Shown one piece after another: positions 25,803-61,453 of a stretch of 64,000 nucleotides of DNA (position 1 is the stretch's first letter; every line of letters starts with the position of its first letter). The notes beneath the pieces are model-generated. The model saw only the letters and a list, made by a program, of their open reading frames with translations. It was not told the origin of the DNA and made no database searches. The stretch spans positions 133,503 to 197,502 of the forward strand of contig JACPTB010000005.1 in assembly GCA_016192995.1 (NCBI GenBank), written 5' to 3'. Source of the DNA: Candidatus Woesearchaeota archaeon. GTDB taxonomy: Archaea; Nanobdellota; Nanobdellia; Woesearchaeales; DSVV01. The position numbers and the translations under genes were made by a program.

Positions 25803-25965
25803 GGCTCTGTCCCAAATCTCGGCTAACGCCTCGGTTTTGGTGCCGTGATTATCCCACTTGTTGATAAGAACGAAAAAATTCCCATTGGAATTCCCTTTTT
25901 TCTCGATTATTTATTTGTAGGATAATCACAAGCATGGCACCAAAAACTACATTTGGGACAGAGCC
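25803..25965. mobile_element. family-B palindromic MITE-like repeat (B1), 9-bp TSD GTAGTAGTA
   Basis: GGCTCTGTCCCAAAT...GGTTTTGGTGCCGTGATTATCC...GGATAATCAC..GGCACCAAAAAC...ATTTGGGACAGAGCC; identical 9-mer on both flanks. Confidence 0.8.
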
Positions 25966-26010
25966 GTAGTAGTACAAACTTTTATAAATTATATCCTATT
26001 CGATTACATA

Positions 26011-26709
26011 ATGACTTTAATGCCAAAACATATTGCTATTATTATGGATGGCAATCGAAGATATGCTAAGAAGAATAAACTTTTATTACTTGAAGGCCAT
26101 CGTAAAGGCGCTGAAAAACTGAAAGAAGTTCTTGCATGGTGCAAGGAATACAACATCAAAGAGCTAACTTTGTACACTTTTTCTATACAAAACTTTTCAA
26201 GAATAAAAGACGAAGTAGATTACTTAATGAATTTGTTTAGAGAATATTTTGATGCGTTTTTCAAAGATAAAATCTTTGATGAAGATAAAATTAAAGTAAA
26301 TATTATCGGAAGAAAGCAATTATTTCCAAGCGACATCCAGGAAAAAATGAATCAAGTGGAAGAGAAAACAAAAAACTATTCTCAACATATTCTTAATTTT
26401 GCTATGGGTTATGGAAGTCGAGAGGAACTTGTTGATGCATTCCAAGCATTAGCGAAAAAGGTTGAAAACAAAACTCTTTCTTCAGAACAAATTACAGAAG
26501 AGACCATTAACCCTGCTTTATATCTTTCTCATGCACCTGATATTTTAATTCGCACTGGAGGAGAAAAACGGCTTTCTAATTTCTTATTATGGCAGTGCAG
26601 TTATACTGAACTCTTTTTTATTGACAGTTTCTGGCCGGAATTTTCAAAACAGGAATTTACTTCAATCATTAAGAAGTTCACAGAACGAGAAAGAAGATTC
26701 GGGAAATAA
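26011..26709 (+). CDS. uppS: undecaprenyl-diphosphate synthase family cis-prenyltransferase
   Basis: HIAIIMDGNRRYAKK and C-terminal RTGGEKRLSNFLLWQ. Confidence 0.8.
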   Translation: MTLMPKHIAIIMDGNRRYAKKNKLLLLEGHRKGAEKLKEVLAWCKEYNIKELTLYTFSIQNFSRIKDEVDYLMNLFREYFDAFFKDKIFDEDKIKVNIIGRKQLFPSDIQEKMNQVEEKTKNYSQHILNFAMGYGSREELVDAFQALAKKVENKTLSSEQITEETINPALYLSHAPDILIRTGGEKRLSNFLLWQCSYTELFFIDSFWPEFSKQEFTSIIKKFTERERRFGK

Positions 26710-26714
26710 GTTTT

Positions 26715-26993
26715 TTATTTAATTGCTTTTTCAACAGCTTTTAAGAACGTATCATTTAATTTATGAATGGCTTTAAGTGAATCTTCAACTGCTTTAACTG
26801 GTGATTTTCCTTTAGTCTCAACCACTAAACGAGGAACATTGAGTAAAGGATGCTCAATATAGTATCCTCCTACTTTAACTTCTTTATCATCACGTAATTG
26901 ATGCGCTAGAAGATTAAATAAGGTATGTGTTTCTGCACCAGGAAAATCAACAACAAGTTTGTGTTTGGTATTCTCTAATACTTTAACTTCCAT
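26715..26993 (-). CDS. rpo11: DNA-directed RNA polymerase subunit Rpo11 (L)
   Basis: 92 aa; MEVKVLENTKHKLVVDFPGAETHTLFNLLAHQL matches the RpoL/Rpb11 N-terminus. Confidence 0.6.
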   Translation of the reverse strand: MEVKVLENTKHKLVVDFPGAETHTLFNLLAHQLRDDKEVKVGGYYIEHPLLNVPRLVVETKGKSPVKAVEDSLKAIHKLNDTFLKAVEKAIK

Positions 26994-27071
26994 AACTATA
27001 CATTTTTGGGTTTATTTATAAATGTTATTATTACTATTAGAATTGCCATAATCAAGTGGTGAAAGTACTAG

Positions 27072-27812: not shown

Positions 27813-27909
27813 AACATTATTAGAATAATTGTTTTATTTAAAGTTTTGTATTGAAGTATACTACTACCATTTAGTAATATTTAAATACTAGTATTACTTT
27901 AATACCATT

Positions 27910-28152
27910 ATGGCAATTAAAACTATTAAAGATGTTGATGAAGAAACGTGGTATAGATTGAGAAAGTTATCAATAAAAAATAGAACACCTATGGGGAAAT
28001 TGATACATGCTATGGTTGACATTTATGAAAAGAAAACTGAAAATGTATGGGAAAATATCCTCAATGGTGAAAAACTCATCTCTGATAAAGAAGCTGATAC
28101 TATGGAGAAGAAATTATTAAAAGTAAGAAAAGAATATGGTTTTAGAGTATGA
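27910..28152 (+). CDS. RHH-like antitoxin (VapB-like)
   Basis: 80 aa; 4-nt overlap with the PIN gene. Confidence 0.5.
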   Translation: MAIKTIKDVDEETWYRLRKLSIKNRTPMGKLIHAMVDIYEKKTENVWENILNGEKLISDKEADTMEKKLLKVRKEYGFRV

Positions 28153-28544
28153 CACTTATACTGGATACATCAATACTTATTGATTTAGAAAGAAAAAGAA
28201 AATCAACATTAGAAAGATTATCTGAATTATGCAAGAATTATCCTGACACTCCAAAGATTGCGTTTATTACGTTATTTGAAATCCTTCTTGGATCAAAAGA
28301 GAAAAATAAAACAAATCAGCAGAAATGTTTAGAGTTTGTTAAACAATTCACCGTATTGCAGACATCAACAAAAACTGCCCCAATACTTGCTGAATTAAAA
28401 TATAAATATGATCAAAAAGGGATTCCATTATCACTTTCTGATTCGCTTATTGCGGCATTAGCAATTGAGAATGGCTTAATTCTTGTTACTAAAGATAAAG
28501 ATTTTAATAATATAACTGAGATAAGAAAGATTATATTAAATTAG
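28149..28544 (+). CDS. vapC: PIN-domain toxin (VapC-like)
   Basis: MTLILDTSILIDLE. Confidence 0.65.
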   Translation: MTLILDTSILIDLERKRKSTLERLSELCKNYPDTPKIAFITLFEILLGSKEKNKTNQQKCLEFVKQFTVLQTSTKTAPILAELKYKYDQKGIPLSLSDSLIAALAIENGLILVTKDKDFNNITEIRKIILN

Positions 28545-32833: not shown

Positions 32834-34342
32834 ATGGAATACACTCAAGGCTCATTGGAAAAAAATAAAAGAAATATTAATAACATTCAGTGGTATCATC
32901 AGCGTTTTGATGGCTGTCCTTTTTTCCTCCATGTTATTTCAGAAGCAGAATCAACTAATGAACAGCGAAAACATGGTTGGATATTTCAGCATAAGGTATG
33001 CTTTTACCATAATGATCGGGCAGATTGGTATATCGACATGCTTTCTATCAATAAAATTGCCAAAGAAATGCTCGAAGAATTGCAGCAAAATCCTTATTTA
33101 AGCAAACAATTAATTGCAGCATGGTATGAAGATGACAACAAATTTTATGAGATTTGTAAGAGCATAGATCGCCTTGAGGTGAATATATTGTCAGACAAAG
33201 AATTGTTTGAGTTATTCAAAATATTCTGCCAGCAAACAATAAAGCGAGAAACCTCAAGTTCAATTATAGACGGTTTTGCACTAGGTTCAGATACTTTTGT
33301 TGCAGAGCAGATTCAAGATTTTCTTAAGATTAAAGGCAGAGAAAAAGAATTCACTAAACTCTTTCCTATCTTAACAGCGCCAACAAAACAATCTTTTATC
33401 AATGAAGCTGAAGTAAGCTTGTTAAAAATAGCATTTCTTAAAAAAGACCATCAACAATATGCTGATTGCCTTAAAGATCATCAAGAGCGCTATTTCTGGA
33501 GTAAAAATAATTATGTTCAAGCGCATTATTTAGATCAAGCTTATTTTGAAAAAGAGATTAACCATCTATTGAACGACCACAAGACAAAGGAAGATTTACA
33601 ACAGCACATTGATAAGCTTGAAAGAACGCCAATAAAAAATAAAGAAGCAAAAACTAAATTAATTAAAGAACTACCGTTATCACCTTACATTATTAGTTTG
33701 CTTACCATATCAGATGACTTTACTTGGTGGCAGGATGAACGAAAAAAATCGACGTATTGGTATATTCATTATGGATGCAAGCTTTTGGAAGAGATTGCAA
33801 AGCGAAAAGGATTTACCCTTCATCAATTAAAGTATACAACTCCTCCAGAAATTTTATCAATGCTGGAAGGAAAAACGCATTACACACACGATCAACTTAA
33901 TGCAAGAATTAAAGAATGCGCATATTATTGGAATCCAGATCAATTTGAATGTATTACTGATAAAAAACAACTTGAAGAATTAAAAAATATTATTCTTAAA
34001 AAACAAGATTACTCCAAAATTACCTCATTTAAAGGGCTCTGCGCTAATTCAGGAAAAGTTAACGGTATGGTTAAAATTGTTAAAAGCGCAACAGAAGTTC
34101 ACAAAATTGAAAAAGGAGATATTCTTGTAGCAGTTATGACAAGACCAGATTATATTACTGGCATGAAAAAAGCAGCAGCCATTGTTACTAACGAGGGCGG
34201 AATTACCTGTCATGCAGCAATTGTCAGCAGGGAGATTAATATTCCCTGCATTATCGGCACAAAGATTGCAACTGAAGTGTTAAAAGATGGTATGATGATT
34301 GAAGTTGATGCGAATAATGGCATAGTTAAGATATTAAATTAA
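32834..34342 (+). CDS. Rph/PEP-synthase-like protein lacking ATP-grasp domain: substrate-binding-like helical domain plus phosphohistidine swivel domain
   Basis: C-terminal GDILVAVMTRPDYITGMKKAAAIVTNEGGITCHAAIVSREINIPCIIGT; central WWQDERKK..YWYIHYGCKLLEEIAKRKG resembles the Rph RIF-binding/swivel junction. Confidence 0.6.
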   Translation: MEYTQGSLEKNKRNINNIQWYHQRFDGCPFFLHVISEAESTNEQRKHGWIFQHKVCFYHNDRADWYIDMLSINKIAKEMLEELQQNPYLSKQLIAAWYEDDNKFYEICKSIDRLEVNILSDKELFELFKIFCQQTIKRETSSSIIDGFALGSDTFVAEQIQDFLKIKGREKEFTKLFPILTAPTKQSFINEAEVSLLKIAFLKKDHQQYADCLKDHQERYFWSKNNYVQAHYLDQAYFEKEINHLLNDHKTKEDLQQHIDKLERTPIKNKEAKTKLIKELPLSPYIISLLTISDDFTWWQDERKKSTYWYIHYGCKLLEEIAKRKGFTLHQLKYTTPPEILSMLEGKTHYTHDQLNARIKECAYYWNPDQFECITDKKQLEELKNIILKKQDYSKITSFKGLCANSGKVNGMVKIVKSATEVHKIEKGDILVAVMTRPDYITGMKKAAAIVTNEGGITCHAAIVSREINIPCIIGTKIATEVLKDGMMIEVDANNGIVKILN

Positions 34343-34356: not shown

Positions 34357-35922
34357 ATGAATATAAATATCCGAGAATTAGCTCATCAGAAATGGAGCAT
34401 ACAGGGATTTAATGCCTGCGCTAATTATATTTCTCTTGCAGGAATGTCCGGAATAGAGGACATGCATAAAGTATTAGGTTATGGGTATACACAGATTCTT
34501 CTTGCTTTTAAAAAAGATTATCTTGAATTCCACTATCTTGAAAAGGATTTTCAAGATATCGGCGCTGAATTCATGAAGCGCTATCGTCAAAATGAAAATT
34601 ATTTTACTAGTCTTCTTGGCAAAGATAAGGAATTCAATGAACAATCATCAAAAGTATATCAAGAAATTAAACAACAGCTTTTGTTACATGATAGAAATAC
34701 ATCAAAATGGTCAAAAGAAGATATTATCAGACTGCATCATCAAGCTTTTGAAGCATACCATAATGCGTTATCAGTCGCTCATATTATTGAAGGCATTACC
34801 TATGTTTTGGAAAAAGAAATACTCAGCCTATTAATCAAAGAACTTCAACTTAATGATACAAAACACGCTGCAAAAATAATGAATGAATTAAGCCAGCCAA
34901 TACGACCTTCATTTATTACCGAAGAACATATTGATCTCTTGAAAATTCTTAATATAATTGTTAATAATAATGAGATTCTCTCATTGTTTAAAACTAAAAA
35001 AACAGAAGAAATATTTGTTTTACTTCCTGAAACTTTGAAGAAAAAAATAGAGCAGCATGCAGAAACATATTTTTATTATCAGCTTAATTATTATCATGCT
35101 GAAAGTCTGAAGCCATTAGATTATGTTAAAGAATTACGGGAAATGATTTTACAAGAAACTGATCCACAACAACAAATTACGCAGGAAATACAGCGTTATA
35201 AAGAAAATATAACTCGGCGGGATCAAAAATTAAAAGAATTAAAACTAAGTCAAGAAGCAAAGCAACTTCTTGATCTTTCTGTTGAAATTCTTCATTGGCA
35301 GGATGACAGAAAAAAATTCATTCTTATTGGAGCTTATTATATGCATAAAACCCTTAAGCTCATTGCAGATACTTTTGCAATCCCCCTGGAATTGCTCAAA
35401 CGTTTACATCCTCCAGAAATAACTCTTGAACTATTGCACCATTTTGATGAAGCAGCAATAAAAAAGCGTGTCGATCATTTCATCTTATTTCATTGGTATG
35501 ATGATAACCATAAACAGATGAAAACAAAAGTATTTGATGAAACTGAATATAATTTTTTTATGGAGCAATGTCGCAAACAACATAACCAGATTGAAGATCT
35601 TCATGGTTTAAGCGCAAGTACCGGAAAAGCAATAGGAAAAGTAAGAATCTGTAAAACAAAAGAAGATATTGCGTTGTTTGAGCAAGGTGAAATTCTTGTA
35701 GCAAGTATGACAAGACCTGAATTTATTCCAGCAATGAAAAAAGCAGCAGCAATAGTAACTGATGAAGGAGGAATAACTTGTCATGCTGCAATTATCAGTC
35801 GTGAATTAAATATTCCCTGTGTTATCGGAACAAAAATTGCTACAAAAATTCTGAAAAATGGCATGATGGTTGAAGTCAGAGCAAATCACGGATTGGTTAA
35901 GATAATTTCATTAATCCTCTAA
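34357..35922 (+). CDS. Rph/PEP-synthase-like paralogue (no ATP-grasp) with phosphohistidine swivel domain
   Basis: GEILVASMTRPEFIPAMKKAAAIVTDEGGITCHAAIISRELNIPCVIGT; 14-nt spacing from the upstream paralogue. Confidence 0.6.
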   Translation: MNINIRELAHQKWSIQGFNACANYISLAGMSGIEDMHKVLGYGYTQILLAFKKDYLEFHYLEKDFQDIGAEFMKRYRQNENYFTSLLGKDKEFNEQSSKVYQEIKQQLLLHDRNTSKWSKEDIIRLHHQAFEAYHNALSVAHIIEGITYVLEKEILSLLIKELQLNDTKHAAKIMNELSQPIRPSFITEEHIDLLKILNIIVNNNEILSLFKTKKTEEIFVLLPETLKKKIEQHAETYFYYQLNYYHAESLKPLDYVKELREMILQETDPQQQITQEIQRYKENITRRDQKLKELKLSQEAKQLLDLSVEILHWQDDRKKFILIGAYYMHKTLKLIADTFAIPLELLKRLHPPEITLELLHHFDEAAIKKRVDHFILFHWYDDNHKQMKTKVFDETEYNFFMEQCRKQHNQIEDLHGLSASTGKAIGKVRICKTKEDIALFEQGEILVASMTRPEFIPAMKKAAAIVTDEGGITCHAAIISRELNIPCVIGTKIATKILKNGMMVEVRANHGLVKIISLIL

Positions 35923-36140: not shown

Positions 36141-37601
36141 TTGATGATGGTTACTTGGAAATGGGAATTTCAGAGAAATATGGATATAATTAAACGATTA
36201 GGATTTGCTCCTTCTTTTGCAGAATTTACGGGAATATGTGCTTATACCAGCAGGAATGGCAATATCAATTTTTATTGGAATGTTGAAGGAGCTGATAAAA
36301 AATCACTTGCATTAGTTGAAGCCATTAAAGCAGACTCCTCTTTTACCGAAAACTGGGTGCATGACCTTAATAAAAAAGCAGAACAGTGGAAGAAATTCAC
36401 TGAAACTATTTATTTAACAAATTTAACAAATCCAGCAAAACTTTCAGATACAGAACTCTTTACTTTTTATCAACAATTCCTTGATTTACATCCGCAAATT
36501 GCTTCATTTGCAGCATGGATTAGAATAATTATTCATCAAGGGGTTCTTACTTTTGAGAAAATACTGAAAGAAAAAATAAAAGATGAGGCTGAATATAAAA
36601 ATGCATTAACGGTTTTGACTTCAACACCAAAACAAAGTTTTAATGGAGAAGAAGAGGAAGCTTTTTTAGAACTTGCATTTAACATTTTAAATAAAGAGCA
36701 GAATTTTGAAGAACTTAATGAACTCTCTCAACCATCATTAGCTCTTCTCACAAAACATCGGAATAATTATTGCTGGATTCCATGCGGTTATTATGATGAA
36801 CCAGCGCATGATTTAGATTATTATTTTCATCGATTGCTCCGTGTGAAGAAAGATCGAGTGCATTCACGACAAGCGTTAAGCACCTTGCAGGAACTATCTG
36901 AGCTTATTGAACAAAAACAATATGTCCTTTTGCAGAATCTTAAACTCAGCAAAGAAGCTCTGCGTTTAATGGAATGCCTCCAGGAATGTGTTTATTACAA
37001 AGATTATGTTCGAGGAGTTCTCAATAAAGGCTATTATCTTTGCTATCCTTTGTTTGAAGAATTAGGGAAACGCGTGAAGCTAAGCATGCTTGATGTCAAA
37101 TTTTTGCTTGAGGAAGAATATGAACAAGCATTGTTTTCCAAAACAGATTTTACCGCCTTGATAAGCAAGCGAAAAAAGTTCCATATAATGGTTGTTGAAA
37201 AGGGAAAACCAATTAAGCTGATGTATGGGAAAGAAGCAGAACAATTAGTTCAGGAAATTGAAGGCAAGCTTGATGACGTTAAAGAAATCAAAGGCATGTC
37301 TGCAAGTCCAGGCTACGCTAAAGCGAGAGTAAGAATTTTGAAAAATCCAGCAGACATACAGAATGAAACTCATGATTTTATCCTCGTTGCCAGCATGACA
37401 ACACCTGAATTTATTGTAGCCATGCAAAAAGCATTGGCTATTGTAACTGATGAAGGCGGTATAACCTGCCATGCAGCGATAGTTGCCCGGGAGATGAACA
37501 AACCTTGTGTTATAGGCACTAAATTAGCCAGTAAAGTTCTTAAGGATGGTATGATTGTAGAAGTTGATGCTGATAGAGGGATTATCAAGATAGTTTCTTA
37601 G
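36141..37601 (+). CDS. Rph/PEP-synthase-like paralogue (no ATP-grasp) with phosphohistidine swivel domain
   Basis: HDFILVASMTTPEFIVAMQKALAIVTDEGGITCHAAIVAREMNKPCVIGT. Confidence 0.6.
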   Translation: MMMVTWKWEFQRNMDIIKRLGFAPSFAEFTGICAYTSRNGNINFYWNVEGADKKSLALVEAIKADSSFTENWVHDLNKKAEQWKKFTETIYLTNLTNPAKLSDTELFTFYQQFLDLHPQIASFAAWIRIIIHQGVLTFEKILKEKIKDEAEYKNALTVLTSTPKQSFNGEEEEAFLELAFNILNKEQNFEELNELSQPSLALLTKHRNNYCWIPCGYYDEPAHDLDYYFHRLLRVKKDRVHSRQALSTLQELSELIEQKQYVLLQNLKLSKEALRLMECLQECVYYKDYVRGVLNKGYYLCYPLFEELGKRVKLSMLDVKFLLEEEYEQALFSKTDFTALISKRKKFHIMVVEKGKPIKLMYGKEAEQLVQEIEGKLDDVKEIKGMSASPGYAKARVRILKNPADIQNETHDFILVASMTTPEFIVAMQKALAIVTDEGGITCHAAIVAREMNKPCVIGTKLASKVLKDGMIVEVDADRGIIKIVS

Positions 37602-41883: not shown

Positions 41884-41932
41884 TATGTTACGATACTTTC
41901 ATCCTTTCGTTTTAAAATCTTGTGGTCTAAAA

Positions 41933-42148: not shown

Positions 42149-42193
42149 TAAAACTAAGTTAATTATATAAATACTCATCGCTTTTTTACGGTT

Positions 42194-45372: not shown

Positions 45373-45416
45373 GATAGTTTAAAGAAATTGTCTTTTATAA
45401 ATATTATGCGACAAAC

Positions 45417-47067: not shown

Positions 47068-47083
47068 TGTTTACCTTTTTATT

Positions 47084-47246: not shown

Positions 47247-47896
47247 TATTCTATTATTATCTCACTTCCATCTTCTAACTCAAACTCACCTCTCAAATAA
47301 ACCGGAGCAATGATTTCGATAATATTTTCCGTATGAGTAGAACGCAATGGTTTGATTAAATAACCTGGCAGTTTTTTGTTTATTTTAATAGGATAGCAAA
47401 GTATTCCGCCAAAGGTTCTTTCTTTTGTGACAAAACCTTCAATTATAATCTGATTTTTTGTCTGGAAAAATTCTTTTAATTCCACGGGATTAACTTCAAT
47501 ATTCAAGGTTCCTGGATAGGGTGTCAGATTGAGTTTCTCTTTAAACTGTTTCTGGTAACCTTCAATTTGAACATAATATCTCCCTTCTCCTAAACCACTA
47601 ATAACTTTGCCGGTCCATTGTTTTAATGCTGTTCCAAATAATGATTTTAAGGTGATATAATTTTGCTCTAATAATTGCTTTGCCTCCAGAGTTAAGCTTA
47701 GTTTCATCCCTTCTGCAACTAATTCCTTATTTAAAAATCCCTTTTCTTCCAATTCTTTTATTTTTCTTGATGCTGTCTGCTGGGAAAAGCCAAGAGCATT
47801 GCCTAACTCCAAGGTAGACATAATAATGACATCATGCAATTTTGTCTTATATGCCATATATAATAATAGTGGCAGTTCTTCATTATAAGTATCCAT
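47246..47896 (-). CDS. ribK: CTP-dependent riboflavin kinase with N-terminal HTH (archaeal RibK)
   Basis: TPYPGTLNIE and C-terminal beta-barrel pattern; N-terminal wHTH. Confidence 0.65.
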   Translation of the reverse strand: MDTYNEELPLLLYMAYKTKLHDVIIMSTLELGNALGFSQQTASRKIKELEEKGFLNKELVAEGMKLSLTLEAKQLLEQNYITLKSLFGTALKQWTGKVISGLGEGRYYVQIEGYQKQFKEKLNLTPYPGTLNIEVNPVELKEFFQTKNQIIIEGFVTKERTFGGILCYPIKINKKLPGYLIKPLRSTHTENIIEIIAPVYLRGEFELEDGSEIIIE

Positions 47897-47989
47897 ATTA
47901 AGTACGATAAGAATAGTAAACTACTTATAAATGTTATGGTTAGCAGAAATGAGTATTATGTATAGATAAGAACTAAAGAAAGACAAACA

Positions 47990-49396
47990 TTATTTCTTCT
48001 TTGGATTTAATTCCAGATATGCTTTTCCTTTATCTTCATCATACGTAAAGGTAAATGTTCCATCATTTGGCGCTGGGAAACATATTTGACCTTCTGGTGT
48101 TACCGTTGCACTAGGTATAGTAATCATAGGAGCAACTATTGGACCAGTATATTTTAATGGCACACAGGCACCATCTTTACAATACGTAGCAGAAGGGCAA
48201 TCAATTTCACCTGCTTTTTGAATAATGTTTTTACCATAATCACAGAAATACTCAGTAATTTTTGTTGGTTGATTTTTTACACATTCATCAGTAAGTTTTT
48301 CCCATTTTCCATAATCATTTTTACCATAAACAGTTCCCTGCACATAGGGATTAATATATCCATACTTGCTTACTGGTTCAAATGATTTATAGTTTTTATC
48401 AGTGACATCTGTGTCTGAACAAAGAATATCTTGAGCAACTTTCGCTGGAGCTACTTTTGCAGGTGGAGGAGTTTTCGGTTTAATATCTTTACAGTCACAC
48501 AATCCTGACCATCCTTCTAACATAGGATCTGCGGAATTGCTCTCTTCACTCATTAATCCTTTATTAATCAGTTCCTTCCATGAAGAATCTGAAGCTTTAT
48601 TCCCCCAGTCAGTTGAACTATAATAAAAACTATTTTTAGCCTCTAAATGTGCAGTTTTGACTTCGCCATTGCTTAAAGTGATTATGATATCAACATAAGG
48701 AACTGTTGCACAGGTTAAACCTGGTTGGCAAATATCTCCATACCACTGCTTGATTTCAAGTTCATTTCCAACTAACCCATCATATTTGCTTAAAACAGAT
48801 TTACTTGGAAACAAATAATGCTTAAATTCACAGGTTGTTTTACCTAAACAGTTAATAACATATTGAGGTAATGAATCTTCAAGAGCTTTTGCTTGTTCAG
48901 TTGTTCCTTTCTTTAACGTACCTGTTTTTACACCTATTCCAGGCTCGCCTGGAACAACAACATTAATATCTGAAATAGCTAAATTAGTTTTAAAGTACAT
49001 AGAAACGAAATATCCTGGCAAAGTTGTAGTATCAGATCCTGAAGATTCAAAAATAACATTCTGCCCTGGCATAACTGCATTTTTAAAAAATGCAGTATCT
49101 CTATAGACATATACCGTACCACTGACTTTTCCTTGCAGTGGCTGATCTTCGACAAGCTCCTGTGGATTAGAAAATTTTTGAGAAGGTTTTTTACTAGTAT
49201 CATATGCAGGAAGTGCCCTTGATACTTCTCTCACATCTCTCGCTGCAAATCCAGTAATACTATCAGAACTTGATGTTCCAGAATCACCTATGAAGATGAT
49301 TGCAACAATAACAACAGCTAAAACACCATACGCAATATATGCTTTATATTCCATGTTCTTTTTGAGAATACTTGATTTATATATTTTTTCATCCAA
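47990..49396 (-). CDS. membrane-anchored extracellular Cys-rich protein
   Basis: N-terminal TM helix, about 20 Cys, no known motif. Confidence 0.4.
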   Translation of the reverse strand: MDEKIYKSSILKKNMEYKAYIAYGVLAVVIVAIIFIGDSGTSSSDSITGFAARDVREVSRALPAYDTSKKPSQKFSNPQELVEDQPLQGKVSGTVYVYRDTAFFKNAVMPGQNVIFESSGSDTTTLPGYFVSMYFKTNLAISDINVVVPGEPGIGVKTGTLKKGTTEQAKALEDSLPQYVINCLGKTTCEFKHYLFPSKSVLSKYDGLVGNELEIKQWYGDICQPGLTCATVPYVDIIITLSNGEVKTAHLEAKNSFYYSSTDWGNKASDSSWKELINKGLMSEESNSADPMLEGWSGLCDCKDIKPKTPPPAKVAPAKVAQDILCSDTDVTDKNYKSFEPVSKYGYINPYVQGTVYGKNDYGKWEKLTDECVKNQPTKITEYFCDYGKNIIQKAGEIDCPSATYCKDGACVPLKYTGPIVAPMITIPSATVTPEGQICFPAPNDGTFTFTYDEDKGKAYLELNPKKK

Positions 49397-49397
49397 T

Positions 49398-49639
49398 GTA
49401 CGTATTAAGTCTGGTGGTTTAGCGCCTACTTTTGTGAAGCTCCTCTCGTATATTTATCGGGGATTTTTCGGAGTTCCTTGCCGATAGGCAAGTCTTATAA
49501 TCCCAGACGCAAGCCAAATTATGACTCCTTGATTTATATTATTGAGGGAGTCGGGATTATATTTATAGAGAGAAAAATCCAATTGAACTAACTTGAAAAG
49601 CTGAACCGGCGCTAAACCCGAAGAAGACTTAATACGTAC
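49398..49639. mobile_element. family-A MITE-like repeat (A4) carrying a nested insertion; 8-bp TSD CATCCAAT
   Basis: Termini GTACGTATTAAGTCT/AGACTTAATACGTAC; about 85-bp internal extra palindrome; identical flanking 8-mers; fills the whole divergent intergenic region. Confidence 0.8.
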
Positions 49640-49679
49640 CATCCAATAATTATTTAAACAACTGCTTATTAATCCGATC

Positions 49680-52181
49680 ATGCCTAAAGCAGAATTGAAA
49701 CCAGTTAGCTTCAAGCCAAATAAATCTGCCTTTATCTATTATCCACTGCTCATAGGTTTTATCATAAATGCAGTTGTATTCATTGTTCTCTTTAGTATTG
49801 CAAGTTTTCTCCTCCAAACAATTTCTCCTTTGCCTTTTATTCTGATTTTTCTGATAGTAGAAACGTATAGCATAATCAATAGACACCTACGTTATAACAA
49901 AGAAGAATACCTTATATATTCAGATAGACTTATTCAAAAAGGCGGTTCAATATTCTCAAACTACCAGACTGAATTAATCGTCAAGAATATTACCCATGTC
50001 AAAATGAGCATGCCATTTATAGAAAGCAAATGGTATGGGACTGGCAATATTCTTATACAATCCGCTGGCTCAGCTGCTACGCAAATCTATTTGCATGCTA
50101 TTGACACTCCAGAAAAGATTTACAATCAAATTGCAACCCTTATGCAGAAGAATGGTTTTAGATTAACAGGAAAGCAATTATTGCAGCAGGAATCACCTGA
50201 TACCTTAGGAGCGTTTTTTGAAGTTGGCAAGCAAAGCATTGGTATAGTAGCTGGTTTTTTTATTGCAGGGTCATGGTTGTTTGGCGCAAGCATCCTTATC
50301 TTGAAAAAAGCAACAGGAAAAGTGAATTTTGATATTATAGTGATTATAAGCGCACTTGTTATTGCTTTAATTATTCTGTTAATCTACCTTATTTTTCATT
50401 TCATTGATTTGATCAGAAGAAAATATTATATTTATACGGACATGATTATTTATACTGAAGGATTTTTAACCAAACATTATGCGTTTATGCCGGTTGAAAA
50501 CCTTGCAGATTCTGAAACTAATCAGACCATTATTGATAGAATATTTGGATTGTATGATGTTATTATTAGCTGCCAAGGTTCTGGCCAGGAAATCGTGTTC
50601 AAAAATATGAGAAATGGCCAAGAATTAGAGAAAAACATTGATGCATTAATTGCAAAATATGCTTCTCTTGCAAGAACTAAAGAAACAAGTTCAGGAATGT
50701 CAGCAATGACCGAGGAAAAAACACAGAAAATAGCAACAAGCTCAAGATTAAGCGCAGCAAAAGTCAGTCCTACCAGTTCTGCAATCCATAAAATCACGAC
50801 AACTAATTTTACTGGCGAATATAAGATGAATACGGTGCGGGCAATTGCTCCTGTGTTCATGGTGCTACCCTTATTTATCATTTTATTTCCAATCTTGATT
50901 TATTGGGGAATCTATCTTGTTAGTGTAATTATTCAGATGGTTGGCACCTCTTATTATATCAAGCAAAACAGTATTGAAGAGCGGTTTAAATTTATACATA
51001 TTAAAAATAAAGAATTTAGCTTAGATAAAATCACGTTAGTTATAATACGAGAAAGCATCATTGACAAATGGTTTGATACTATTAAAGTCGAATTCAGATC
51101 CATTGGCTCTTCAGGAAGCATTGTTTTCAAACACCTCAAAAAAACACCAGATTTAATCCCAAATATTCTTGCAAAAACAGGGATACAACAAGATCAGCTG
51201 CTTTACTCGGTTGCCGCGGATTTTAGTTTTGGTGAAATGATTAAGGCAAAACTATTTTCAACGATAGTATGGCTGCTGATTTTTGCTGCAACAATTATAA
51301 GCGGATTATTCTGGAGTCCATTGGTATTTATAGGAACCATACTTATGATTGTTGCTCTTATACCAACAATATTGTATCTTCAAGCTTATTATGAAGACAC
51401 CAAGCTTTCATTTTTCAAGAATTATGTTTACTGTAAAAAAGGACTAATTGTTAAAGAACATTTTTATGCGCATTATCCTAATATTAAGGATTTAACCATA
51501 ACAAAATATGCATGTTCAAACCATGGAACAGCATATTTTAATGTTGCAGGAGAAATGCTTGTCAGCACCGGAAAAAGCCAAACTATTGTTTCTAGCGGAT
51601 TCAGCATTAATTATGTGCCAAACATTCAAGACAAGGATGAATTGATAGATATTATACTTGATAGACATCCTTCATCTGAACAAATAAAAAAGATAGAACA
51701 AAATATTAATGCTCATAAAGAGACACCACTAATGCTTGTTAAACCTAGTATTGCAAACAGCATGATAAAAACAATAATCTTTTTGACGATTATTACGATG
51801 GTTGGAATTTCAGCGGCAATGTTTTTAGTGCCGCAAGCAGAAGGGTTAAGGGATCTGATTATTGCTGGAATAATAGGATTAATAATAGCGTTTGATCTTT
51901 TTATATTGATTCTTGTAATTATATCGGTTAAAGTTAAATCATATGCCATTGAATCATACAGAGTTGTAGAAAAATCAGGTATCATTTACAAAAAACAAAC
52001 ATCTATTATCTTTGATAAAATTGATTTTATTAATACCTATGAAGGTATGCTTAACAAGCTGTTTAGGAACGGAAATATTACGGTTAACACTGCAGGAAGC
52101 TCAGCTCCTGAATTGGTTATAAGCAATATTCCTGAATACAAAGAATTTTATGAGATGTTGAAAAAGTATTATAAGAAATAG
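49680..52181 (+). CDS. YdbT-like membrane protein with four repeated bPH_2 (bacterial PH) domains
   Basis: 833 aa; repeated unit of a TM hairpin followed by about 80 aa (e.g. ...GLYDVIISCQGSGQEIVFKNMRNGQELEKNIDALI). Confidence 0.55.
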   Translation: MPKAELKPVSFKPNKSAFIYYPLLIGFIINAVVFIVLFSIASFLLQTISPLPFILIFLIVETYSIINRHLRYNKEEYLIYSDRLIQKGGSIFSNYQTELIVKNITHVKMSMPFIESKWYGTGNILIQSAGSAATQIYLHAIDTPEKIYNQIATLMQKNGFRLTGKQLLQQESPDTLGAFFEVGKQSIGIVAGFFIAGSWLFGASILILKKATGKVNFDIIVIISALVIALIILLIYLIFHFIDLIRRKYYIYTDMIIYTEGFLTKHYAFMPVENLADSETNQTIIDRIFGLYDVIISCQGSGQEIVFKNMRNGQELEKNIDALIAKYASLARTKETSSGMSAMTEEKTQKIATSSRLSAAKVSPTSSAIHKITTTNFTGEYKMNTVRAIAPVFMVLPLFIILFPILIYWGIYLVSVIIQMVGTSYYIKQNSIEERFKFIHIKNKEFSLDKITLVIIRESIIDKWFDTIKVEFRSIGSSGSIVFKHLKKTPDLIPNILAKTGIQQDQLLYSVAADFSFGEMIKAKLFSTIVWLLIFAATIISGLFWSPLVFIGTILMIVALIPTILYLQAYYEDTKLSFFKNYVYCKKGLIVKEHFYAHYPNIKDLTITKYACSNHGTAYFNVAGEMLVSTGKSQTIVSSGFSINYVPNIQDKDELIDIILDRHPSSEQIKKIEQNINAHKETPLMLVKPSIANSMIKTIIFLTIITMVGISAAMFLVPQAEGLRDLIIAGIIGLIIAFDLFILILVIISVKVKSYAIESYRVVEKSGIIYKKQTSIIFDKIDFINTYEGMLNKLFRNGNITVNTAGSSAPELVISNIPEYKEFYEMLKKYYKK

Positions 52182-52207: not shown

Positions 52208-52257
52208 GTACGTAATAAGTCTTCTATGATTTTAGTGTCGGTTCAGCTTTTGAAGTG
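52208..52257. repeat. solo left half of a family-A repeat
   Basis: GTACGTAATAAGTCTTCTATGATTTTAGTGTCGGTTCAGCTTTTGAAGTG with no right half. Confidence 0.6.
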
Positions 52258-52272
52258 AAATTCAAAAAATAA

Positions 52273-53358: not shown

Positions 53359-53588
53359 AGTATCATCCTAATATTTATTTTGTAGTTTTAAAATGTTTTG
53401 AATTAATGATTCAAGTGTATATTAGTAATAGAAACTTTCATATATTGCTAATATATAAAATGTTGTGATAAAAATAAATTAGTTCCTGCATGGAAATGGC
53501 TGCTGAAGGATTGAAGTGTATTACCTTAAGTGTTTCTTGTCCATTTTGATTGGCACCCTTCAGTGCATATCTTTTTAAAACAATGATA

Positions 53589-56057
<2,469 letters not shown>

Positions 56058-56170: not shown

Positions 56171-57094
56171 ATGTTTCAGAAACGTAAACCACAGCAATTA
56201 TGGACAGATTATCTTGTTGAACGGCTTCACGATGAAGGGTACACACAGGTTAAACCATTCTCAGAATGTGAAAGAGCTTATTTTCCTGATGATATACATA
56301 GGGAACATCATATTACCTTAGAAACAATAATAAGTAATGGTGATGTAGAAATAATTTTACAAAGAGGATTTGATACAGTTGATATTGGTGAACAAGGACT
56401 AAGAACTGCTGCTGGATATTATACACCAGATCGTCTTACTGAAATTCTTAAAAATGCCAAATCGTATGATGATATACCATTTATTATAATGCATCAACTC
56501 GGGTTGCTTAGAGAATCTCTCATGTTAATTTTCAAAGATAAAAGTGGGTGGGAAGAGCTGGTAACACTCCAGTTTGAAGATTATAGAGTATTACGTGGGT
56601 CTATTTCTAGTTCAATAGCTGCACCTCATTTGTTGAGAGAATATTTACAAGAAGCAGATAATGTTGTTCAATTTACTCCCCAAAGATTCGCAAATGCTCT
56701 TGTTAAATATGTTAAAACCACCGTAAAACCTGTTGGTGAATCATCTTCTGCCAGAGAAGAACGTCAAGAATTATCAAGATGCTATCAACGACCAGAAAAT
56801 GCTGATTATGGTGCTGGAGTAGTACATGAGGAAGTAGCTGCACAATTAGAGAAAAATCCTCGTGAAATTAGATTAAAGAGTTTTGAAGGTCAAAATATCT
56901 ATGAACTCTACCTATTAAAAAATAATCATCAACCAAAAATAAGAGGGAGGGGATATACCTTACGAGGCGTGGTTGATAAAGTAGAAGTAGTTAAAAGAGT
57001 AAGGAAGTTATTTCAGCGTATACGCACAACACCTCAAGATATGAGAATTGTATATCAAAAAGATGGTCAAAAATATGCTATTTATACGAGATAA
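56171..57094 (+). CDS. hypothetical protein
   Basis: 307 aa, GC-richer, no recognisable motif. Confidence 0.4.
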   Translation: MFQKRKPQQLWTDYLVERLHDEGYTQVKPFSECERAYFPDDIHREHHITLETIISNGDVEIILQRGFDTVDIGEQGLRTAAGYYTPDRLTEILKNAKSYDDIPFIIMHQLGLLRESLMLIFKDKSGWEELVTLQFEDYRVLRGSISSSIAAPHLLREYLQEADNVVQFTPQRFANALVKYVKTTVKPVGESSSAREERQELSRCYQRPENADYGAGVVHEEVAAQLEKNPREIRLKSFEGQNIYELYLLKNNHQPKIRGRGYTLRGVVDKVEVVKRVRKLFQRIRTTPQDMRIVYQKDGQKYAIYTR

Positions 57095-59659
57095 TATGTT
57101 CTCCTTATCCACTTGACTAATTCATTCACTATAATCATGCTTAAACCAGTAACAAAAATAATACTCCAATCAGTAAAACTTAATGGGACTGCATGAAAAT
57201 AACCTGCAATACGTGGAACTGAAATAATGATAATAGTTGAAAGTATTGAAATAATAACTCCACCAAGCAAGAATTTATTTGAAAGCAAATGTTTATTAAA
57301 AATACTCTGTTTGCTATCACGGCAATTAAATATATTAATCATTTGACAAACAATGATAGTTACAAACGGAATAGTAGCTGCTTTTTCAGGCATTCCTTGA
57401 TATAAAAACCAAGAATAGAGTATGATAGCGCTGAGAGCAATAACAACGCTATTAGCAAGAATCCTGATTAATATTTCTTTCCCTAAAATTGACTTTGTTC
57501 TATCTCTTGGTTTTTCTTTCATGATATCGTGAGATACAGGATCAACGCTTAAAGCAAGCGCTGGCAATACTTCTGTTCCCAGATCAATCCATAATATCTG
57601 CACTGCCGACAACAAATTCCCAACACCAGGTAATAACGAGAACATTACAACAAAAAACTCAGCAGTTATTCCTGAAAACACGTAGAGTATAAACTTGATA
57701 ATGTTATTATAGATTATTCTCCCTTCTTTAACAGCATGTACGATAGTTGAAAAGGAATCATCAAGCAAAACCATTTTAGAAGCTTCTTTGCTGACATCAG
57801 TTCCTGTTCTGCCCATAGCAACACCGATATCTGCCTTTTTCAAAGCAGGAGCATCATTAACGCCATCTCCAGTCATAGCAACAATATGCCCTTGCTCTTG
57901 CAGCAGCGTAACTATCCTTAATTTTTGTTGCGGATTAATATGAGCAAACACACGAACAGTTTTCAAAGAATCTTTTAATTGTTCATCAGTCATGGTTAAG
58001 AGTTCATCCCCTGTAATCACTGAATCTCCACCAGCAATAATACCAACCTCTTTTGCTATGGCAGATGCTGTTGTCTTTTGATCGCCAGTTGTCATGATTA
58101 CGGTGATTCCTGCAGTTTTACATAATCGTATGGCTTCTTTGACCTCAGAACGCGGCGGATCAATCATCCCTACAAAACCGACAAAGATCATGTTTTGCTC
58201 TAATTGTTTTTTGTCACTTAGTTTATACGATGACAATGATTTGTAAGCGCATGCAAGAACACGTAGAGCGCGATCACCCATTGCATGATTTACTTCAAGA
58301 ATTTTCTTTTTCTCTTGAGAAGTAAATTTTTTAACCTTTCCATTTATTTTAATATGCGTGCAATGAGCAACAACTTCATAGGGAGCGCCTTTAGTATAAG
58401 AAAGATATTTTTTAACAGTTTTATGAACAGTAGTCATGATTTTACGTTCAGAAGTAAAAGAGATTTCATCGATCCTTTGAAAAGTATTTTTAAGAACATC
58501 AACATTAAGATTGCTCTTTGCTGCAGCAACAAGGAGTGCAAGCTCAGTCGGATCGCCAACAAGAGTATTCTCTGAAAACTGAGCATTATTGCACAGGCTC
58601 GATATCTGTAAAATATCTCGGTAGTTACAATTATTTTTTGTTCCTGGAACAAAAATTTCTTTAACGGTCATTTCATTTTTAGTCAATGTTCCTGTTTTAT
58701 CGGTGCAAATAACCGTAGTGCAGCCAAGCGTTTCAACAGAAGAAAGCTTTCGAATAATAGCATTTTGCGCTGCCATTTTTTTAACACCCATAGCTAAAGC
58801 AATAGTAACTGTAGCAGGCAATCCTTCAGGAACAACAGCAACTGCTAATGCAATGGAAAATAAAAATACCTCATGTAAGACCGAAAGAGAAAATCCTGAT
58901 TGCCATAAACTATGACCAATAACTAATAAAGATATGCTTACGGCAACCTTAGCAATAAACATGCCAATCTTATTTAATTCTTGCTGAAGAGGACTCTCGT
59001 CAAGAGAGACTTTTGTCGTGATATGGGCAATCTTTCCAAGTTCTGTATTCATACCTATACTGGTGATCACAGCTTTAAGGTGCCCGGATTGCAGCAAAGT
59101 TCCAGCATAGAGACTGTTTTCCTTCGCCATCGCCATAAGCTATTTTAGATTGAGGGAGTGATTCACCTGTCAAAGATGCTTCATTGACATGGACATTAAC
59201 TGCTTCCAAGATAACAGCATCTGCAGGGATGTTAGTTCCTTCTTCAAGGAGGATAATATCTCCAACAACTAAATCACGCACAGATAGTACACTGATAGTT
59301 CCATCACGTAATACTTGGCAGGTTGAAGCAACCATTTTTTTCAATGCTTCTATTGATTTTTCTGCTTTAAATTCCTGTATAAATCCTATGCAAATATTAA
59401 TCAAAACTATAATCAGAATTAACCACGCATCTGAACCAGCTCCGGTAAGCCAAGCAACAAATGCTGCGATAATTAAGAGTATAATAAGCATGTCTTTAAA
59501 CTGATGAAAAAAGAGTCTCAATACATTAAAACCAGTTGTCCTTTTAAGTTCGTTATAACCATATTGTTTTTGCCGCGCTTGAACTTCAGATTGGCTTAAG
59601 CCTCGAACCTTAGTATTAAACTTCTTATAAAACCTTGCAGAATAACTATGTTGAGCCAT
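57082..59659 (-). pseudogene. cation-transporting P-type ATPase split by a frameshift (ORFs 59075..59659 and 57082..59136 overlap out of frame)
   Basis: N-terminal ORF ends ...LTGESLPQSK; second ORF continues NSLYAGT... with DKTGTLT, TGDGVNDAPALKKADIGVAMG; the frames differ by 1 around 59100-59136. Confidence 0.65.
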
Positions 59660-59703
59660 ATCATTTTTATAGCACTTACTCTTAAAAAAGTTAACTATTT
59701 TAT

Positions 59704-59866
59704 GGCTTCGGTGAAAATGTAGTTTTTGGTGCCATGCTGGTGATTATCTTTCAAATTAATGAGCGAGAAAAAAGGAAATTCCAATAGGAATTTTTTCCTT
59801 CTTATCAACAAGTGGGATAATCACGGCACCAAAACCGAGGCGTGAGCCGAGATTTTCACTGAAGCC
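59704..59866. mobile_element. family-B MITE-like repeat (B3; termini GGCTTCGGTGAAAAT), TSD about TATTTTAT
   Basis: Conserved B core; sits in the divergent promoter region between the ATPase and rSAM genes. Confidence 0.75.
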
Positions 59867-59928
59867 ATATTTTATATCATTTTATATAAAGAATAAGATT
59901 AGCTACTACAAGTAGGAGGTTTATCTAC

Positions 59929-61293
59929 ATGATTAATGTTCTTTTAGTCTATCCACCATTCTGCACACCTGCTGCTCCACCTTATTCAATAACTTATTTA
60001 CATACGTTTCTTCGAAATAATCTTCCAGAAGAATATACCGTAAGTGTGATAGATCTCAATATTTTTTTTCATAATAAGAAATTTCAAGAATATCATACTT
60101 ATTAAAAAAAATATGATAAAAAAACTTATTCAGGAAAAACTAAGCAATTTCTCGCATTAACAAATCAATGCTACGCAGAAAACAATAAAAAAGTGGTTAA
60201 TAACTTAGAACCTGAATTACTAGAGGAATCTCTCCGTTATATTTTAAGTAAAGCGCCTGATGTTGTTGCATTCAGCATAGTTTATTCGAGCCAAGCATTT
60301 TATGCCTATGCTTTGCTTAAAGAGTTAAAAAAACAAGGCATTAAAACAGGTATAGGCGGCCCATGCATTAATAACAAACTAAAAGGGATTGCAGATGTTA
60401 CGTGCAGTAATGAAGTTGTGTTTTTGGAATATATACTTACTATACTTAAATATTCCATAGATCATAATGCATTGAAGACAAATAGAATCCTTGATTTTTC
60501 AATATATAATCTCGAAGATTATTTTACTTTTTCTCCAGTATTGTCTTTAAAAACATCAAATAGCTGTTATTATAAACAATGTACTTTCTGCACCCACCAT
60601 GGCAATGCGCAATATAGAGAACACTCTTTGGAAGATATTAAGAAAACTATTGTCAAATCACAACAAAAATATTTCTTTCTTGTTGATGAAATGATCCCAA
60701 AAAACAGGTTATTAGAAATTGCCGAATTACTTAAGCCGTTAAATATCATCTGGATGTGCCAACTGCGTCCGACAAAAGATTTAGACAAAACAACCTTGGA
60801 AACATTAAGAAAAGCAGGATTGAAGGCAATTTTATGGGGTGTTGAATCTGCAAGTGATCGCATTTTGCAGCTGATGAAAAAAGGCACTAATAAAAAAGAT
60901 ATTAGTTTAGTTATTAACAATGCAAAAGAAGCTGGCATTACTAATGTAACCTATATTATGTTTGGGTTTCCTACTGAAACAAAAGAAGAGTTCATTGAAA
61001 CCATTGATTTTTTAAAGGCGCATGAAAAAAGTATTGACTTAATCTCGCCAACAATTTTTGGTTTGCAAAAAGATGCGCCGATGTTTAACAAGCCTGAGCA
61101 ATATGGCATCACCCAAATAATAACTGAACAAAGAACTATTCTTGAGCCGAAAATTACCTATAAACTTTCTCAAGGATTATCGCATGAACAGGTGATAAAG
61201 CTCAGCAAAGCTTACAAGCAAACACTTCAAAAAATTAATAAATTTCCTAAAGAAATGAATTTCTTCCGAGAGCATATGTTAGTGTTGTTATAG
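59929..61293 (+). pseudogene. B12-binding radical SAM protein interrupted by one in-frame TAA at 60103-60105
   Basis: GGAGGT 8 nt before ATG 59929; MINVLLVYPPF... B12-domain start; same frame continues through the TAA into ORF 60193..61293 with CYYKQCTFC radical-SAM cysteine triad. Confidence 0.6.
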
Positions 61294-61453
61294 GCAGTGT
61301 AGAAAATCTCGGCATAGCCTCGGTTTTGGTGCCGTGATTATCTCACTTGTTTATAAGAAGGAAAAAATTCCTATTGGAATTTCCTTTTTTCCCACATATT
61401 AATTTGAAGGATAATCACAAGGGTGGCACCAAAAACTACATTTTCTACACTGC
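61293..61453. mobile_element. family-B MITE-like repeat (B4; termini GGCAGTGTAGAAAAT), 9-bp TSD TGTTGTTAT
   Basis: Conserved B core; identical 9-mers on both flanks; starts right at the rSAM stop codon. Confidence 0.75.

Follow-up and report, generated by a model that had tools for sequence, protein, structure and literature searches.

A MITE family is usually recognised by its conserved ends, which correspond to those of a parent insertion sequence (IS). In Acinetobacter, ISAba12 and MITEAba12 (IS5 family) have ends GGCTTTGTTGCACAAA and 9-bp duplications (PMC6382973), and these ends hardly vary across MITEAba12 and its IS relatives, with which MITEAba12 has nothing else in common. The ~155-bp MITE-like repeat bcr1 of the Bacillus cereus group has terminal direct repeats and a long double-stranded fold kept by compensatory changes (PMC3184786), while REPINs (REP doublets mobilised by RAYTs) are non-autonomous hairpin-forming elements that conserve the pairing, but not the sequence, of part of the stem and frequently show compensatory changes (PMC3116915). 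Recombination and conversion between the terminal inverted repeats (TIRs) of ISWpi1 (IS5 family, Wolbachia) make both TIRs identical (PMC3004938). A survey of MITEs lists one Woesearchaea genome with 105 MITEs per Mb, a density near the top of the archaeal range (PMC11602168). Compensated MITE-like repeats and MITE-rich Woesearchaea have both been reported before, and the compensated ends described here add a new twist to a known type of selfish DNA without constituting a novel type of system.

The stretch analysed, referred to here as the window, comprised 64 kb from an archaeon labelled Candidatus Woesearchaeota by NCBI. Thirteen elements were located in the window, four copies of family B together with nine of family A, of which eight are full and one is partial, and these occupied ~3.3% of the sequence at a density of ~200 per Mb, for which the survey above (PMC11602168) offers a comparison of counts only. 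The four family-B copies were found where a preliminary description had placed them, and the 21-mer GGTTTTGGTGCCGTGATTATC occurred exactly four times against zero expected. Their MITE-like nature was borne out by terminal inverted repeats, multiple copies, a lack of coding sequence, target duplications and an empty-site allele for the copy B1. The family-B repeats are genuine MITEs of a DPANN archaeon and have moved recently. Coding capacity was nil, with no ORF of at least 120 aa within any element, and in 45417-45616 and 45975-46126, the A copies inspected for this, the overlapping chance ORFs did not exceed 57 aa. No transposase domain was detected in any larger ORF of the 64-kb window.

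Each element is a rod-like imperfect palindrome, typically of 150-165 bp, with family B at ~163 bp and all full A and B copies between 152 and 242 bp. The layout consists of a 15-bp terminal stem (P1), a short linker, 12-bp P2 arms (GGTTTTRGYGCC / GGYRCYAAAAC) that are conserved and common to both families, and a family-specific interior of ~90 nt closing in an oligo-T/oligo-A hairpin. Ends starting with GGC were present on B1 to B4 and on the A copies beginning at 41933 and 45417.

B1 (25803-25965, plus strand, 163 bp) has the terminal stem GGCTCTGTCCCAAAT / ATTTGGGACAGAGCC and is flanked by the 9-bp target duplication GTAGTAGTA (9/9; 25794-25802 and 25966-25974), the left copy of which contains the stop codon of the ORF 24625-25797. 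B4 shares the B1 orientation (61293-61454, plus strand, 162 bp) and has the terminal stem GGCAGTGTAGAAAAT / ATTTTCTACACTGCT and the duplication GTTGTTATA / GTTGTTATG, matching at 8/9 at symmetric boundaries; at its start the flanking TA and the first G of the element form the stop codon TAG of the ORF 60193-61293. The other two copies have the opposite orientation. B2 (47084-47246, minus strand, 163 bp) has a terminal stem, GGCTCTGGTGAAAAT, complementary at 15/15, flanking 9-mers that match at 6/9 only, and a last base that belongs to the stop codon of the minus-strand ORF 47246-47896. B3 (59704-59866, minus strand, 163 bp) has the terminal stem GGCTTCAGTGAAAAT / ATTTTCACCGAAGCC with one A.C (G.T on the opposite strand) and the duplication CTATTTTAT / ATATTTTAT (8/9). 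Of the flanking 9-mer matches reported earlier those of B1 (9/9) and B3 (8/9) stood, whereas that of B4 reaches 9/9 only with a 1-nt offset and is otherwise 8/9. The core string reported for family B likewise reflects real repeats, but its (A/G)TG.TGG ambiguity is an artefact that arose because two B orientations were merged into one string.

Among the family-A copies, 8-bp duplications flank four with GTACG-type ends, namely 6257-6409 (plus strand; terminus variant GTACGTATTAAGTCT, compensated A>T; duplication GTTAAATA, 8/8), 12283-12436 (plus; terminus GTACGTAATAAGTC(C); AAATTACC, 8/8), 49398-49639 (minus; terminus GTACGTATTAAGTCT; CATCCAAT, 8/8) and 63408-63561 (plus; terminus GTACGTAATAAGTCT; CTTAAACA / ATTAAACA, 7/8). 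In the third of these the apical loop is enlarged by a hairpin-rich insertion of 89 nt (49478-49566). The copy at 45975-46126 (plus) has the terminus variant GTGCGTAATAAGTCT / AGACTTATTACGCAC, compensated A>G, with no target duplication, and its right terminus contains the stop codon of the minus-strand ORF 46119-46589. Two A cores carry the terminus of B2, GGCTCTGGTGAAAAT: 41933-42148 (plus), which is without a clear target duplication and has a 65-nt insertion of two hairpins (42068-42132), and 45417-45616 (plus), which has the 9-bp duplication GCGACAAAC / GCGATAAAC (8/9) and a 45-nt hairpin insertion including C(TTCG)G (45445-45489). A diverged, mosaic A copy at 43209-43369 (plus) has a third terminus type, GAGAACTTTGCAAAAT, and a B-like 5' linker, ACTCGCATAGCTCGG; its P2 (GGTTACTGCC / GGCAGTAACC) and apical stem (GCAATTTTC / GAAAATTGC) are both compensated while the loop TCTCTGGAACTCC is unaltered. 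The truncated copy at 52208-52265 (plus) retains the 5' terminus and a decayed P2 arm only. The hairpin insertions of three A copies were considered as further repeat families and rejected, as none had a second copy in the window.

The outer 15-mers of the four B copies were as previously listed, and when each end was compared with the reverse complement of its own partner the matches were 15/15, 15/15, 14/15 and 14/15. Across all 12 full copies the inverted ends of 15-16 bp were complementary at 14-15 of 15 positions, so that 177 of 180 P1 positions were paired. Eight terminus types (nine distinct arm pairs) were distinguished, which matched their own partners at 14-15/15 versus a mean of 7.2/15 for foreign partners. 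Among the B copies the centre of P1 had a pairwise difference of 0.57 per site versus 0.26 for internal loops and 0.00 for P2, and seven of the eight pairs at P1 positions 4-11 were variable. A covariation check showed the terminal variability to be compensatory, with 7/7 of the pairs changed on both sides in a B-only alignment located in the terminal helix. For 10 distinct A and B variants, P1 and P2 were 99.2% paired versus 73% in shuffles, and none of 500 shuffles was as high; these pairs were counted on equal-length P1 and P2 constructs joined via an artificial GAAA loop, because MAFFT alignment of whole A copies mis-registers unrelated termini. Single-base changes mirrored on both arms included A>T at position 8 and A>G at position 3. 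The elements fold strongly (z about -9) and the two strands fold equally well. An RNA-level function had been suggested should the terminal variability preserve base-pairing; the pairing is preserved, but compensation alone does not show an RNA role and G.T and A.C pairs are about equally frequent on the two strands. The variable P1 centre was also considered as captured target sequence and rejected, since it shows no resemblance to the target duplications and is inverted and not direct. A bulge-helix-bulge splicing motif at the P1/linker junction was rejected on loop size (15 versus 3 nt).

Mobility was evident from an empty site. One Logan contig (L131) reads ...GGAATATTTTAAA|GTAGTAGTA|CAAACTTTT..., with one 9-mer between the B1 flanks, a second (L130) represents the filled allele, and further contigs terminate exactly at 25802 and at 25966, the edges of B1. 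Because the empty site holds a single GTAGTAGTA, B1 is an insertion of 163 bp that duplicated 9 bp of target sequence, and the sampled population is polymorphic for its presence. Target duplications surround 8 of the 12 full copies, being 9 bp in four GGC-type copies (9/9, 8/9, 8/9 and 8/9) and 8 bp in the four GTACG-type copies listed above, while the flanks of the other four copies are unclear in this respect. Logan contigs also break ~30 nt (k-1) into B1, B3 and the 43209 element, which implies that each seemingly unique terminus variant exists elsewhere in additional identical copies and is thus competent for transposition. In a relative (L127) whose neighbouring gene is 64% identical, two corresponding intergenic sites are element-free and consist of 38-nt spacers. 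Protein look-ups retrieved nothing longer than short Logan contigs interrupted at the elements, and those for undecaprenyl-diphosphate synthase gave no result.

Searches for related sequences were otherwise negative. Rfam 15 gave no element match at gathering score across the whole window, and at permissive thresholds the region 41800-49800 gave only a chance-level miRNA match (E = 0.73). The degenerate gapped pattern GGTTTTRGYGCC N{80,110} GGYRCYAAAA had 106 single scattered matches in unrelated bacteria, none multi-copy, in a genome-contig collection that does not include the source genome, and these were attributed to chance. Metagenome contigs had no match to the exact B 21-mer or to an A apical 31-mer, viral contigs had none to three patterns, BLAST of B2 against phage and plasmid collections had none, and literature searches with exact element strings returned nothing relevant.

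Kinship of the two families, as proposed in the preliminary description, is supported by the shared P2, core length and terminus and by a mosaic copy, but the similarity of the interiors is marginal (z 0.6-2.8). The shared arm motif is real in both A and B, while CTGGAAC, described earlier as common to both, was located in B2 alone among the four B copies. The span from GGTTTT to AAAA is exactly 113 nt in both families, the identical terminus GGCTCTGGTGAAAAT occurs on B2 and on the A copies at 41933 and 45417, one A core was found with GGC-type and with GTACG-type ends, and the mosaic at 43209-43369 combines a B-type linker with an A-type loop. Relationships by P1 conflict with those by the interior, which points to module exchange and not stepwise drift.

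Compared with the described systems, the elements share features with MITEAba12, which is also small, AT-rich and non-coding, has ~16-bp inverted ends starting GGCT.TG.TG, and makes 9-bp duplications on insertion into AT-rich intergenic sequence (PMC6382973). The terminus GGCTCTGGTGAAAAT resembles the ISAba12-type ends GGCTTTGTTGCACAAA, with ~10 of the 14 first bases the same as GGCTTTGTTGCACA of ISAba12 (PMC6382973), although this is a resemblance only. In contrast to MITEAba12, the ends here are the most variable part and the interior is conserved, the host is an archaeon and no parent IS was seen in the window. The bcr1 repeats differ in having 5-bp direct repeats, shown transcription and no sequence relationship to A or B, and an exchange of termini between two core families, as seen here, is not described for them. 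In REPINs the ends are conserved and the spacer varies, no target duplication is made and a RAYT gene is linked, whereas the elements here have variable ends and 8-9-bp duplications with no RAYT seen in the window.

Families A and B are probably non-autonomous DNA transposons moved in trans, with arms kept complementary by copying and/or by selection for fold-back. One or more DDE-type transposases encoded beyond the window would mobilise them, probably two enzymes because the duplication length varies with the end type. Insertion takes place at staggered cuts, with 9-bp duplications for GGC...AAAT ends and 8-bp duplications for GTACG ends. It counts against this explanation that an ordinary DDE transposase recognises its ends by their sequence, which neither predicts nor accounts for a hypervariable TIR centre. 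The enzyme may read no more than the tips (GGC, AAAT) and the subterminal sequence, leaving the central 8 bp of P1 to drift freely. The arms would be copied repeatedly from each other through TIR-TIR gene conversion or hairpin-templated repair, and/or only copies able to fold back as a single strand would propagate further, while recombination through the conserved P2 arms may reshuffle cores and termini between copies. The process described for ISWpi1 is a DNA-level precedent for compensated end changes without RNA selection (PMC3004938), although it concerns rare inversions of a full-length IS, whereas here 15-bp arms lie 130 bp apart in an archaeon. It also speaks against this explanation that the window contains neither a matching transposase nor a complete IS bounded by such ends, that the rates and the recombination were inferred from 13 copies only, and that the copies at 41933 and 45975 are without target duplications. 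The copy at 43209 is compensated also in its internal stems (P2 and apical) with the loop unaltered, a pattern that resembles selection on a folded molecule more than TIR-TIR conversion alone. Any effect on the host is probably incidental; the elements occupy intergenic gaps, often border or contribute stop codons, and introduce T5-6 runs behind genes on both strands.

That the elements are primarily structured-RNA genes or modules, with P1 as a closing helix constrained to pair though not in sequence, P2 and the apical loop functional, covariation due to selection at the RNA level and mobility secondary, was judged unlikely. A conserved core with a covarying peripheral helix is the classical structured-RNA pattern, the folds are strong, the 13-nt loop TCTCTGGAACTCC is conserved even in the diverged copy in which all stems are changed and compensated, the A versus B differences in P2 are transitions with G.T intermediates in two copies, and three A copies have gained additional sequence invariably in the form of local hairpins, of which one includes a C(UUCG)G tetraloop. 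However, fold quality is equal on both strands, non-Watson-Crick pairs (~5 G.T versus 3 A.C in the reference orientation) favour no strand, and orientation relative to neighbouring genes goes both ways. Most double changes in P1 are transversion flips, which are impossible via G.U, and the divergence of the P1 centre, over twofold that of the loops, does not agree with stepwise compensation. The absence of an Rfam match and the DNA insertion demonstrated by target duplications and the empty site also argue against a primary RNA role.

It is likewise improbable that each terminus variant has its own co-evolved, related transposase, as IS species within a family do, with arm identity a mere reflection of enzyme specificity and shared cores spread among the shells by recombination. 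The two end classes with 9- versus 8-bp duplications do point to a minimum of two enzymes, the relationships of termini and of interiors are incongruent, A and B cores carry one same terminus and every variant appears to be multi-copy. Against this, a small DPANN genome would have to encode about as many transposase specificities as there are variants, of which at least five are of GGC/GAG type and three are single-base variants of GTACG type, and enzyme specificity does not account for single-base changes mirrored on both arms. The 64 kb hold 13 elements without a transposase, and many different IS of the ISAba12 group have almost the same ends (PMC6382973).

A bolder reading, for which we see only a slim chance, is that the 113-nt P2-bounded core is a functional, folded ssDNA or RNA module present in at least two unrelated transposon shells (GGC-type with 9-bp and GTACG-type with 8-bp duplications) and moved by an enzyme that recognises the fold-back structure of the ends and not their sequence. 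Such an enzyme would represent a structure-reading, target-duplicating mode of transposition undescribed in archaea.

Movement of REPIN-like hairpins as ssDNA by a structure-recognising HUH enzyme (RAYT or IS200/IS605-type) is very unlikely. HUH single-strand transposition (IS200/IS605) is not known to yield 8-9-bp target duplications. The hairpin architecture and frequent compensatory changes are as in REPINs (PMC3116915), but the 8-9-bp duplications, the clean empty site with a single 9-mer and the absence of a RAYT or TnpA gene from the 64-kb window speak against it. Immobile palindromic regulatory or terminator sites, conserved and repeated by chance, would fit the position at gene ends and the T5-6 runs in both orientations, but this is refuted by the B1 empty-site allele and contradicted by the duplications flanking 8 of the 12 full copies and by the element-free relative, and can be dismissed with near certainty.

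The fastest-changing part of these elements is the ends, which are nonetheless perfectly paired, and a single core is combined with two classes of ends whose target duplications differ. Were this pattern to extend across the genome, it would tell what the mobilising enzyme reads, namely tips and structure. The pattern bears on how palindromic repeats hold their arms in step, and is relevant to transposon annotation, which relies on conserved inverted repeats. Should ordinary arm-to-arm gene conversion be responsible, the elements would be a clean natural example of it with no new principle. For DPANN genome dynamics, these tiny genomes apparently tolerate ~200 insertions per Mb, packed against stop codons.

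Four family-B elements (B1, 25803-25965; B2, 47084-47246; B3, 59704-59866; B4, 61293-61454) were confirmed by direct reading and alignment where the preliminary description had placed them, and their outer 15-mers agreed with those listed there. The copies are 161-163 bp long, with a mean identity of 91% per alignment column when all four are set in a common orientation, and the window contains the 21-mer GGTTTTGGTGCCGTGATTATC exactly four times, where none would be expected. B1 and B4 lie one way and B2 and B3 the opposite way, so the single B core string given earlier mixes both arms. A BLAST search of the elements against the window returned the four B copies, eight full family-A copies (named by start: 6257, 12283, 41933, 43209, 45417, 45975, 49398 and 63408) and one truncated A copy (52208). 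Together these 13 elements account for about 3.3% of the window (approximately 2.1 kb). Outside it, two matching Logan metagenome contigs (L119, 8858-8882; L121, 4050-4078) show the start of a further GTACGTAATAAGTCT-type A element approximately 2.6 kb to the left of position 1. No other inverted-repeat-bounded units were found in a scan of the window, and a transposase domain was absent from all window ORFs of at least 120 aa, including four ORFs without a Pfam match at E <= 1.

The mobility of family B was evidenced directly at B1, in support of the proposed MITE reading. One Logan contig (L131) follows the window leftward from 27900 as far as 25966 and continues into the reverse complement of 25773-25793, an allele with the left flank, one GTAGTAGTA, the right flank and no element, while a contig from another run (L130) carries the filled allele. 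Other Logan contigs stop exactly at 25802 and 25966, the branch points expected if the assembly graph contains both alleles. B1 is therefore an insertion of 163 bp that duplicated 9 bp of its target, and the sampled population is polymorphic for its presence. Logan contigs of several runs also break at 27872-27900, at the 22-bp AT-rich palindrome TAGTAATATTTAAATACTAGTA; a self-complementary k-mer probably causes these breaks during assembly.

Target duplications were scored at exact element boundaries. Copies with GGC-type ends (GGC...AAAT tips) matched at 9/9 positions for B1 and 8/9 for each of B3, B4 and 45417, and copies with GTACG-type ends at 8/8 for 6257, 12283 and 49398 and 7/8 for 63408. 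The duplications previously described for B1 and B3 hold; B4 gives the 9/9 identity described for it when read with a 1-nt offset. The flanking 9-mers of B2 matched at 6/9 only, and a clear target duplication was not seen at the exact boundaries of 41933, 43209 and 45975.

Each element folded into a long rod from either strand (z about -9). Outermost is a 15-bp terminal stem (P1), followed inward by a linker (5-6 nt in most A copies; in B, one side measures 15 nt and contains a 3-bp mini-hairpin), the conserved P2 arms GGTTTTRGYGCC / GGYRCYAAAA(C), and a family-specific interior closing in an A/T-run hairpin. Three A copies carry insertions made of local hairpins at three different places, namely 45 nt inside a P2 arm (45445-45489), 65 nt in the 3' linker (42068-42132) and 89 nt in the apical loop (49478-49566), none of which has a second copy in the window.

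The A and B families appear to be related, as supported by their common P2 arms, a GGTTTT-to-AAAA distance of exactly 113 nt in both, a common terminus and the mosaic copy 43209, in which an A-type interior is joined to a B-type linker and a third kind of terminus. The common origin proposed earlier stands on these features; interior similarity was marginal (z 0.6-2.8), and the CTGGAAC motif said to be shared is present in one B copy only.

The terminal differences proved compensatory, with 177 of 180 P1 positions pairing. The nine distinct arm pairs represent eight terminus sequence types, and own partners were complementary at 14-15 of 15 positions per arm pair against a mean of 7.2 for foreign partners. 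In a B-only alignment, seven pairs had changed on each arm, every one of them in P1 (columns 4-11), and helices outside P1 were invariant or varied without pairing. Among ten distinct variants, 99.2% of P1 and P2 cells were paired compared to 73% in shuffles (0 of 500 as high) and 35-48% in slid controls, and 19 of 25 pairs were changed on both sides, these counts being inflated by unrelated terminus types. Independent of that inflation are the mirrored changes within a type, where GTACG variants carry A>T at position 8 (two related copies) or A>G at position 3 (another) on both arms.

A constraint acting on RNA or on single strands was retained as an alternative. In the diverged 43209 copy the P2 and apical stems are altered with full compensation around an unchanged 13-nt loop, the A/B differences in P2 are of the transition type with G.T intermediates, and one A-copy insertion contains a C(UUCG)G hairpin. 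However, the strands fold equally well, non-canonical pairs in the reference orientation comprise about five G.T and three A.C, the elements point either way with respect to adjacent genes and none matched an Rfam family, which together favour no single transcribed strand.

Slow stepwise compensation does not fit the combined pattern of terminus variation. Per-site difference among B copies was 0.57 at the P1 centre (near saturation), 0.26 in internal loops and 0.00 in P2, with the tips GGC and AAAT fixed. Kinship based on P1 contradicts that based on the interior, B1 and B3 being nearest in interior and furthest in P1, and transversion flips make up most of the double changes in P1. B2 and two A cores have the identical terminus GGCTCTGGTGAAAAT, and Logan contigs end approximately 30 nt (k-1) inside three elements (B1, B3 and 43209), which implies that each terminus variant has further copies elsewhere. 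Together with the mosaic copy, these observations point to exchangeable modules and a process coupling both arms.

All copies are intergenic, and six of the 12 full copies overlap a stop codon or sit at most 10 nt away. The stop of ORF 24625-25797 lies within the duplicated 9-mer of B1, and the terminal G of B4 and of B2 is used by the stops of ORF 60193-61293 and ORF 47246-47896 (-), respectively. An A-element terminus supplies the last codons and stop of ORF 46119-46589 (-), the downstream member of two overlapping DMRL_synthase (lumazine-synthase) paralogues (the other is 46555-47067, -) that adjoin riboflavin kinase and DHBP synthase genes. T5-6 runs occur on both strands of each element; oligo-T tracts can act as terminators in archaeal transcription.

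The window has a G+C content of 33% and includes genes for an intron-containing tRNA (22902-23010, -; its anticodon region holds an intron-like insertion of 39 nt), NMD3, a CTP-dependent riboflavin kinase and an intein-bearing GyrB (53589-56039, -; Pfam Intein_splicing listed for the identical product on contig L107), a gene content that identifies the host as an archaeon. Its proteins were found on short Logan contigs of runs SRR121133xx and SRR121134xx. A 98-nt tRNA-Ile(aat) (53369-53466, +) was called by ARAGORN alone and a weak tRNA (6794-6860, +) by Rfam. The product of ORF 43381-44808 (-) is an AAA+ sigma-54 activator of the bacterial type (PF00158), here in an archaeal genome; NCBI names an identical protein, assigned to a Candidatus Woesearchaeota archaeon, 'sigma-54-dependent Fis family transcriptional regulator', the nearest relative is only 64% identical, and HTH_8 is not listed, in contrast to most bacterial matches. 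The P-type ATPase gene (57082-59659, -) is split at 59110 into two overlapping ORFs where the window is without the 11 nt GATAGTGTATT present in L107, whose uninterrupted product of 886 aa is truncated by the contig end; the split reflects a frameshift allele or else a mistake in assembly. Four paralogues (11248-12255, 32834-34342, 34357-35922 and 36141-37601, +), three of them in tandem, have a C-terminal PEP-utilising mobile domain as their sole recognised part and are the source of repeat family D1. Five PIN-domain (VapC-like) ORFs (2992-3384, 12676-13068, 18460-18858, 28149-28544 and 40096-40497) lie within the 64 kb, several with small antitoxin-like genes upstream on matching Logan contigs.

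A Woesearchaea genome was among the most MITE-dense archaea in a survey (PMC11602168). Compensatory changes in hairpin repeats have been described for REPINs (PMC3116915) and for the Bacillus cereus repeat bcr1 (PMC3184786). The REPIN/RAYT model fails given the target duplications of the present elements. ISAba12 and MITEAba12 have GGCTTTGTTGCACAAA ends that resemble the GGC-type ends and likewise make 9-bp duplications (PMC6382973), but their ends are nearly invariant. A DNA-level precedent for a homogenisation of the arms exists in an IS5-family element, where TIR-TIR recombination with gene conversion is documented to make both ends identical (PMC3004938). Two features of the 13 copies sampled here are not usual in MITEs: termini that are hypervariable yet complementary, and the sharing of one core between two classes of ends.
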